Below, piece by piece: positions 1,989 to 2,472 of a stretch of DNA of 8,037 nt. This DNA is from a virus (lineage: Duplodnaviria > Heunggongvirae > Uroviricota > Caudoviricetes): IMG/VR virus record IMGVR_UViG_2531839237_000019, one strand, 5' to 3'. Numbering within the stretch: the first letter of the stretch is position 1; each line of letters starts with the position of its first letter. The notes under the pieces are model-generated. The model had not been told where the DNA came from, searched no databases, and saw only the letters and a list, made by a program, of their open reading frames with translations. The position numbers and the translations under genes were made by a program.

Positions 1989-2396
1989 TTATTTATTTGC
2001 GCTTCTTTTGCGAGCTTTGAGTAGTTCTTCAAAAAGTTTGTTGAAATTCTCAACTCGAGCACGCATCTCTGACAACAGAGCCTTTTGCTCTGACTCAGGC
2101 AGTGCGTCGAACAGTTGAAGCAACTCTTTTTGATCTTCTGTCAGATTGACTGGCTGATTATCTGGGATCGGTTCGCCTGGTTGCTTATCTTCATCTCCAA
2201 AAAGAAGCCAAGTCGGCGAGCACTGAAGCGCCTGGCTCAGTGCGAATAATCTCTTCCCCGCTGGCTGTGTTTCATCTCTTTCCCATTGAGAAATTGTTAC
2301 GTGAGCCACTTTGACCAGCTTACCTAATGCGGCCTGAGACAGTTTTAATTTTTTTCGCCTGTATAAGAGGCGAGCACCGAAGGTTTCGTTTTTCAT
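1989..2396 (-). CDS. dicA: DicA-like HTH (XRE-family) repressor, 135 aa
   Basis: Translation MKNETFGARLLYRRKKLKLSQAALGKL...LFALSQALQCSPTWLLFGDEDKQP...ALPESEQKALLSEMRARVENFNKLFEELLKARKRS matches E. coli DicA as recalled, at the same length. Divergent from a Cro-like gene. ATG at 2396, TAA at 1989-1991. Confidence 0.85.
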   Translation of the reverse strand: MKNETFGARLLYRRKKLKLSQAALGKLVKVAHVTISQWERDETQPAGKRLFALSQALQCSPTWLLFGDEDKQPGEPIPDNQPVNLTEDQKELLQLFDALPESEQKALLSEMRARVENFNKLFEELLKARKRSANK

Positions 2397-2472
2397 ATTA
2401 GGTAATTCTAATTTTTCTTGACTTAGGTTTCTCTACGATCTAGTTTCCTTAGGAAAATCTAAGGGTTTCGAT
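2397..2472. promoter_or_regulatory. Divergent dicA/dicC promoter-operator region
   Basis: TTGACT (2418-2423), a 17-nt spacer, then TAGTTT (2441-2446) is a candidate PdicC. Operator-like inverted repeats are TTAGGTAATTCTAA (2398-2411) and CTTAG-gaaaat-CTAAG (2448-2463), with another CTTAGG at 2422-2427. On the minus strand a TAGAAT -10-like hexamer ends 8 nt before the dicA ATG, which has no SD. Confidence 0.6.

Follow-up and report, generated by a model that had tools for sequence, protein, structure and literature searches.

A probable near-leaderless mRNA for the DicA-type repressor of an Escherichia coli O157:H7 prophage

The dicA/dicC immunity region

The DNA analyzed here, hereafter the window, is the whole 8,037-nucleotide (nt) stretch of the Caudoviricetes virus record IMGVR_UViG_2531839237_000019 (IMG/VR). 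At issue is its minus-strand gene for a DicA-type repressor, the messenger RNA (mRNA) of which very probably starts only two nt before the start codon. The queried part of the window (positions 1850-2750) was 100% identical to a prophage of E. coli O157:H7, in which dicB, paa and hokD are also found. The locus is the dicA/dicC immunity region of the O157:H7 prophage at ompW; PPompW is the name given in phage records coding for an identical repressor protein. The accession of the repressor, WP_000787428.1, is common to the O157:H7 strains TR01 and EDL933, and the primers for "dicA" and "dicC" used in a study of O157:H7 (PMC6915034) matched the 5' ends of the window genes exactly, which identifies the window as the O157:H7 dicA/dicC locus of the literature.

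The repressor is 63% identical to K-12 DicA over its full length, and its Pfam matches are to helix-turn-helix (HTH) domains only, with no LexA/S24-type C-terminal domain. Next after the divergent, Cro-like dicC gene comes a ydaT/ydfX-like (YdaT-like) gene, for which Pfam (PF06254, E = 3e-5) and the annotations agree. All four features of a DicA/DicC (Qin-type) module are thus present: the repressor, the divergent dicC with a ydaT-like gene, repeated operators, and dicF/dicB, with dicB annotated just outside the window in the identical O157 locus.

Putative operators were identified as copies of the pattern TTAGRNNNNYCTAA, with one mismatch allowed. The window holds five of them, compared to 0.54 expected, and none of 200 shuffles reached five. 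Three copies, which we call Oa, Om and Oc, lie in the spacer between dicA and dicC, and two at the dicB-side promoter (1864-1877 and 1900-1913); there are none elsewhere in the window. The coordinates of these and the other features are collected in Table 1.

Table 1. Features of the window, with the basis of each assignment.
Feature	Position	Strand	Basis or remarks
dicA-type repressor gene, 135 amino acids (aa)	1989..2396	-	Open reading frame (ORF) list; HTH_3 domain at residues 12-64 (Pfam, E = 4e-14)
dicA ATG start codon	2394..2396	-	Earliest possible start after in-frame TAG 2435..2433; RefSeq-annotated start
2-nt 5' untranslated region (UTR; AU), transcription start site (TSS) at A 2398	2397..2398	-	EDL933 TSS 1849474
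-10 hexamer TAGAAT, 5/6 matches to TATAAT	2405..2410	-	Read directly; the mapped TSS is the 7th nt downstream
Weak -35-like GAGAAA, 3/6 matches, 17 nt upstream of the -10	2428..2433	-	Read directly; assignment inferred
Putative operator Oa, plus strand TTAGGTAATTCTAA	2398..2411	.	Pattern match; repeat families D7, I2, I8
Putative operator Om, TTAGGTTTCTCTAC, one mismatch	2423..2436	.	Overlaps the weak dicA -35 and the dicC promoter spacer
Putative operator Oc, TTAGGAAAATCTAA	2449..2462	.	Covers the dicC transcription start region
dicC promoter: -35 TTGACT 2418-2423, 17-nt spacer, -10 TAGTTT 2441-2446, TSS 2453/2454	2418..2454	+	
dicC (Cro-like), 75 aa, Shine–Dalgarno (SD) sequence AAGGG at 2461-2465	2473..2700	+	Pfam P22_Cro PF14549, E = 3e-13; annotated DicC or Cro/CI family
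Candidate terminator hairpin and U-run	1925..1960	-	29 nt past the dicA stop codon; 12-bp stem, inverted repeat I9
dicB-side (PL-like) promoter: TTGACC 1890-1885, TAAATT 1866-1861, TSS 1854	1854..1913	-	Promoter scan match and Cappable-seq
Rfam DicF small RNA match	109-158	-	49.4 bits vs gathering score 48; downstream of ydfA/ydfC-like ORFs as in Qin
hok/sok type I toxin-antitoxin locus	7276-7578	+	Rfam sok at 7276-7425 (103.9 bits), overlapping a Hok-like ORF

The dicA start codon and its mapped 5' end

On the minus strand, the region around the dicA start reads ...CAAGAAAAAT, the hexamer TAGAAT (2410-2405), an 8-nt spacer TACCTAAT (2404-2397) and the ATG (2396-2394), followed by AAA AAC. No ATG, GTG or TTG occurs between the in-frame TAG at 2435..2433 and this ATG, and the TAG makes a longer dicA ORF impossible. 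The position of the start agrees to within two residues among 26 aligned DicA homologues. When the 3-12 nt upstream of the ATG were searched for six 4-mers from the SD consensus AAGGAGGTG, none was found; in the divergent dicC, by contrast, an AAGGG precedes the ATG at 2473 by 7 nt. On its own, the absence of an SD from dicA is not significant, as 88% of shuffles of the spacer, which is 32% GC, also lacked one. The hexamer was evaluated with dinucleotide-preserving shuffles of the 76-nt intergenic region: a hexamer with at least five of six matches, including A2 and T6, ended 7-9 nt before the ATG in 2.2% of 20,000 shuffles. The evidence that the hexamer provides in a single sequence is moderate only.

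The 5' end of the dicA transcript could be placed with published Cappable-seq data on EDL933 grown under eight conditions (PMC10469882, Table S5), in a paper that does not discuss the gene. The gene table lists one TSS for EDL933_RS09600, at 1849474 on the minus strand, detected in all eight conditions. This gene is complement(1849065..1849472) in NZ_CP008957 and has the same protein accession as the window ORF. With the start codon at 1849472 and the TSS at 1849474, the leader is 2 nt long. Genome and window coordinates differ by an offset of 1847076; over the 1001 nt compared to check it, the two sequences differ only at coding position 2307. The convention used for minus-strand coordinates was verified on yciC, where a start codon at 1841694 and a TSS at 1841727 match the 33-nt UTR given in the paper, and was checked on ompW and dicC as well. 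For dicC, TSSs at EDL933 1849529 and 1849530 give 20- and 19-nt UTRs; in the window, these starts fall at 2453 and 2454, where the TTGACT and TAGTTT elements with their 17-nt spacer predict them, which supports the mapping. The TAGATT at 2461-2456, within Oc, was considered as an upstream promoter for dicA and rejected, as the gene-TSS table has no start around EDL933 1849525 on the minus strand.

In window coordinates, the dicA TSS at 2398 is the 7th nt after TAGAAT, and the mRNA begins 5'-AUAUGAAAAAC. The transcript thus starts with AUAUG, in which the AUG occupies nt 3-5, and a leader of 2 nt leaves no room for an SD. The first 14 nt of the mRNA are predicted to be unpaired in both the minimum free energy (MFE) and the centroid structures. 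The dicA mRNA is therefore near-leaderless, with its primary 5' end 2 nt from the ATG, no SD on the transcript and an AUG in a 5' end predicted to be unpaired; published operational definitions of a leaderless mRNA are a 5' UTR of less than 10 nt (PMC4681348) or of at most 5 nt (PMC8794815).

An earlier note, made from the DNA letters alone, had described a TAGAAT hexamer ending 8 nt before the dicA ATG on the minus strand with no SD, had proposed that the mRNA would be leaderless or near-leaderless, and had named 5'-end mapping as a check. Direct reading confirmed the hexamer, its distance from the ATG and the missing SD, and the Cappable-seq data provide the mapping: a single TSS in the gene table, 2 nt before the ATG. 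The note had also named the findings that would speak against it, namely 5' ends far upstream with a functional SD-like element, or a different start codon. The gene-TSS table contains no far-upstream 5' end for dicA, and there is no alternative start codon upstream. We conclude that both the observation and its interpretation were correct, and that the near-leaderless dicA mRNA comes from the promoter named in that note.

Conservation, known relatives and competing explanations

The 26-homologue alignment was used to fetch 58 loci from species-representative genomes, and counts were based on 32 distinct upstream sequences of full-length homologues, scoring TAnnnT hexamers with at least four of six matches. 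Such a hexamer ended 7-9 nt before the ATG in 30 of the 32 alleles, with a spacing of 9 nt in 18, 8 nt in ten and 7 nt in two. In 500 shuffles, the expected number was 4.5 ± 2.0 and the highest 11, and of 113 control ORFs in these loci, 1.8% had the geometry. When the sequences were clustered at 70% identity, the geometry was kept in 10 of 11 clusters, while the hexamers themselves varied between clusters (TAGAAT, TAGCAT, TAGTAT, TAGGAT, TAAGAT and TATATT). The 7th nt after the hexamer was an A in 29 of 31 cases. With the predominant spacing of 8-9 nt, the implied leaders are 0-3 nt long, mostly 2-3 nt. Among complete phage genomes, those of mEp460, PhiR42_1, phiES15 and a Klebsiella phage were examined, and all share the arrangement. 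SD-like 4-mers were present in three of the 32 alleles, compared to 43% of control ORFs, and shuffles predict 3.6; the scarcity of SDs in the family is meaningful against the control genes only, not against AT-rich shuffles.

Only one of the 32 alleles has a real SD. In the Arsenophonus nasoniae homologue (L033:500-560), the one exception to the pattern, AGAGGTG lies a few nt before the ATG and there is no -10-like hexamer near the start, making this a natural leadered variant. For the Klebsiella phage ST405-OXA48phi1.2 (L063:384-403), the annotation starts the repressor at the first of two adjacent ATGs (ATGATG). The hexamer is 9 nt from the second ATG and 6 nt from the first; this spacing and the family alignment both favor the second as the start. 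Three of the loci (L008, L018 and L019) came from metagenome-assembled genomes labeled Collinsella, Bacillota and Veillonella that carry enterobacterial DicA loci, the upstream region of L008 being identical to that of K-12. These look like binning contamination and not true host range.

The closest experimental parallel is dicA of the K-12 Qin prophage (b1570). It was one of five leaderless E. coli mRNAs reported by Romero et al. in 2014, with a 3-nt leader by differential RNA sequencing (PMC4681348); results of RNA ligase-mediated reverse transcription PCR are given in Fig. S1 of that paper. Zhang et al. (2022) included dicA among the "known leaderless genes", with a dominant 5' end at most 5 nt from the ORF by Rend-seq and translation demonstrated by ribosome profiling (PMC8794815). 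The two loci have the same layout: a homologous 135-aa HTH repressor, a divergent Cro-like dicC, dicF/dicB downstream and three operator copies, in K-12 within an intergenic region of about 80 bp. In K-12, too, a -10-like hexamer, TAGCAT, lies inside the proximal operator TTAGCATTAGCTAA, transcription starts at the 7th nt, and there is no SD. The K-12 promoter (TAGCAT TAGCTAACT ATG, with 9-nt spacing) aligns base for base with the TAGAAT TACCTAAT ATG of the window. A hexamer-to-ATG spacing of 8 nt in the window and 9 nt in K-12 accounts for the leaders of 2 and 3 nt, respectively, and the -10 of the window, with five of six matches, is better than that of K-12, with four. The operator motifs of the two loci are unlike in their centers and in the arm position adjoining TTAG/CTAA (TTAGG-N4-TCTAA in the window, TTAGT-CATA-ACTAA in K-12), which may point to an immunity specificity other than that of K-12.

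Other parallels are racR (Rac), ymfK/cohE (e14) and paaR2 (CP-933P), which encode HTH repressors at the lambda-cI position of lambdoid cryptic prophages. Each faces a cro-like gene, which is ydaS in the case of racR and paaR2, and each has a TSS that coincides with the AUG or lies a few nt from it. Their leaders are 0 nt, compared to 2 nt for the window dicA. The leaderless start of PaaR2 is backed by rapid amplification of cDNA 5' ends, N-terminal sequencing and mass spectrometry, and that of racR by mutagenesis of the -10 (PMC9638921), whereas the window allele is backed by TSS data. According to the paaR2 authors, PaaR2 has low sequence similarity to DicA.

Taken together, we consider it very probable that dicA is expressed as a near-leaderless mRNA, with a 2-nt leader and no SD, from a weak σ70 promoter whose TAGAAT lies within Oa and which has the role of a maintenance promoter, and that it is translated by SD-independent initiation. 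The decisive support for the near-leaderless mRNA is comparative and experimental.

Several observations weigh against this reading. The consensus promoter scan missed the dicA promoter, as the -35, GAGAAA, has only three of six matches. No consensus promoter was found for K-12 dicA either (Yun 2012, PMC3441716), with which the weak -35 of the window is consistent, and Reg-Seq detected no RNA polymerase site in the mutagenized K-12 dicA window, a result that is uninformative as data (PMC7567609). The operator half-site TTAGA partly dictates the hexamer, and Oc likewise reads TAGATT on the same strand. Since the half-site by itself yields -10-like hexamers, the hexamer alone is weak evidence, and for that reason the argument rests on the mapped start and on the conservation of TAnnnT across operator types. 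In a K-12 in vivo assay, DicA bound to Oc, not to Om or Oa (PMC3441716), and the roles we ascribe to Oa and Om here are inferred. By the strict definition, a leaderless mRNA has a 5'-terminal AUG, which the dicA mRNA of the window does not. According to Krishnan 2010, as cited in PMC8459731, a single nt added to the 5' end is enough to inhibit initiation on leaderless mRNAs in E. coli. The TSS considered here comes from the gene-TSS table of the EDL933 study, and an additional leadered dicA transcript, such as a PRE-like one, may exist. Lastly, kasugamycin affected the endogenous leaderless genes of K-12, including dicA, as much as it did bulk genes (PMC8794815), so that 70S-type initiation is at most a candidate route for dicA.

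DicA might instead be made mainly from a longer, leadered transcript initiated upstream, for example at an establishment-type promoter running antisense through dicC or ydaT, with the 2-nt-leader RNA as a minor species. Phage lambda has PRE in addition to PRM. Two extra upstream promoters exist beside the leaderless one of racR (PMC9638921), and short leaders are known to lower leaderless translation (PMC8459731). Nevertheless, we regard this explanation as improbable: only one gene-associated dicA TSS was detected across the eight conditions, no SD is found within 45 nt upstream, so that a longer leader would bring no ribosome-binding site, and the spacing kept in 10 of 11 clusters is not needed by a leadered mRNA. 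Moreover, K-12 dicA is translated although its dominant 5' end is no more than 5 nt from the ORF.

It is very unlikely that TAGAAT is an operator half-site only (TTAGA plus spacer), with an incidental resemblance to a -10 and the real promoter elsewhere. The hexamer does lie wholly inside Oa, there is no good -35, and for the TAGATT of Oc, on the same strand, the gene-TSS table has no start about 7 nt downstream. On the other hand, transcription starts exactly 7 nt past the hexamer in both the window and K-12, and, despite different operator-like sequences, the TAAGAT, TATATT, TAGTAT and TAGGAT alleles show no change in T-A-n-n-n-T or in its distance to the ATG. The roles of operator and -10 element are in any case compatible on one stretch of DNA. 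A true dicA start farther downstream, such as the GTG at codon 30, which would make the mapped RNA normally leadered, is a general possibility in that annotated starts are predictions, but is hardly credible, since the HTH_3 match begins at residue 12, residues G7, R9, R13, R14 and K15, just after the start, are invariant in the 26 homologues and that stretch must therefore be translated, codon 30 has no preceding SD, and the O157 gene used for complementation was cloned from the annotated ATG (PMC6915034).

Maintenance-promoter logic and neighboring features

In the prophage state, dicA is transcribed from a weak σ70 promoter with its -10 TAGAAT within the promoter-proximal copy of the 14-bp operator motif (2411-2398), and RNA polymerase begins at A 2398. 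Relative to the mapped TSS, Oa covers -13 to +1, so that it holds both the hexamer and the TSS, and a single nt separates it from the ATG; T2405, the last base of the -10, lies within its variable center. The same DNA would thus serve at once as operator, -10 element and start site. The ribosome would pick AUG 2396 by its nearness to an unstructured, A-rich 5' end, using a leaderless-type, SD-independent route. The A content of codons 2-6 is 45%, compared to 34% in controls, and A-rich codons together with a 5' end predicted to be unpaired are considered favorable to SD-independent initiation.

In Caulobacter, each added nt has a cost of about 2-fold in leaderless translation (PMC8459731). Given such a penalty, the conserved 2-3-nt leader should lower the yield, and the 2-nt leader of the window probably does so in a way that would fit a low-copy repressor. 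A figure of about 20-25 DicA molecules per K-12 cell, quoted in PMC7567609, is consistent with a low yield.

The earlier note had likened the mRNA to that of lambda cI from PRM and had further suggested maintenance-promoter logic. At the level of function, this suggestion is supported. In EDL933, the dicA TSS was present in 8/8 conditions and the dicC TSSs in 3/8, on a presence/absence scale that does not report promoter strength, as expected for a promoter that is active in the lysogen while the cro side is repressed. In K-12, transcription of dicA needs DicA, the promoter being inactive without it in a reporter assay, and the positive effect was assigned to Oc (PMC3441716). Overexpression of DicC represses dicA in O157:H7, according to the summary in PMC10448788. 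The dicA promoter would thus be a maintenance promoter, on while the stronger divergent dicC promoter is mostly off; DicA at Oc and Om may favor its own promoter mainly by excluding RNA polymerase from that of dicC, while DicA or DicC at Oa would turn the dicA promoter off.

The comparison with lambda PRM holds as an analogy and not as an identity. In both systems, the repressor gene is divergent from a cro-type gene and is transcribed in the lysogen from a weak promoter, with three operators between the genes. Neither has an SD; in each, a TAGAnT-type -10 overlaps the operator nearest the promoter, at least in part, and the AUG forms or adjoins the 5' end. In the lambda genome, however, TAGATT is separated from the ATG by 6 nt, which places the TSS at the A of the AUG and gives a 0-nt leader, as opposed to 8 nt and a 2-nt leader in the window. 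The operators are centered at -19, -42 and -66 in lambda (OR3, OR2 and OR1, respectively) and at -6.5, -31.5 and -57.5 in the window. The window operators are thus about 10 bp closer to the TSS than those of lambda, and the -10 lies inside the proximal one. No lambda-type activator site near -42, adjoining the -35, was found in the window; with the operators positioned as they are, a repressor at the middle site cannot occupy the place next to the -35 that is taken by the OR2-bound repressor in lambda. DicA, at 135 aa, further differs from P22- and lambda-type repressors in having no RecA-cleavage site; in K-12, it is induced by an antirepressor.

The spacing of the divergent genes is a further difference: the lambda coordinates are 37940 for the start of cI and 38041 for that of cro. 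In the window, the dicA and dicC TSSs are 55-56 bp apart and the core promoters overlap, with the dicC -35 located between the -10 and the weak -35 of dicA. Most members of the DicA family have retained the dicC -35, which reads AGTCAA on the dicA strand. With this layout of the two promoters, RNA polymerase would probably be unable to hold both simultaneously. If so, DicA-dependent transcription of dicA could reflect relief from competition and not a lambda-type protein contact. It is conceivable, although we lean against it, that the DicA family has a maintenance-promoter design of its own that is unlike PRM, in which operator, -10, TSS and AUG are compressed into about 17 bp, the 2-3-nt leader perhaps serves a very low yield, and self-activation works through mutually exclusive polymerase binding.

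In kind, a near-leaderless dicA was already known from the K-12 homologue in 2014, from the 2023 EDL933 data table and from the parallels in racR, cohE, paaR2 and lambda cI, and the present finding leaves current understanding unchanged. The additions made here are modest: the start site of this allele is mapped explicitly, the spacing is found to be conserved across the family and in complete phages, the leaders are typically 2-3 nt long, and the operator layout is unlike that of PRM. The analysis also links three published items not previously connected: the report of K-12 dicA as leaderless, the genetics of dicA/dicC in O157:H7, and a row of the EDL933 start-site table that had gone undiscussed. 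This is relevant for modeling prophage switches in Shiga-toxin-producing E. coli and for the use of dicA as a leaderless test gene, and it illustrates that a reading of sequence only can rightly spot a rare E. coli mRNA that is translated without a ribosome-binding site.

Downstream of dicA, the hairpin at 1925-1960 has an MFE of -11.2 kcal/mol (z = -3.2), and one of 200 shuffles was as stable. This A/U-rich hairpin is probably a terminator, which would make dicA monocistronic and insulate it from the dicB-side promoter. It was not picked up in the terminator scan because its stem is poor in G-C pairs. The dicB-side TSS (EDL933 1848930, window 1854) was detected in 8/8 conditions despite the two flanking operator copies; since the TSS table records presence or absence only, leaky and real expression are indistinguishable at this position. 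For its K-12 counterpart, dicBp, tight repression by DicA has been described.

At the far end of the window, a 252-aa ORF (6329-7087, plus strand) is annotated in the O157:H7 record as the AcfC-family adhesin Paa. The paa gene is virulence-associated cargo and is located between the phage replication genes and hok. The Hok-like ORF (7366-7578) is annotated as hokD in the identical O157 locus.

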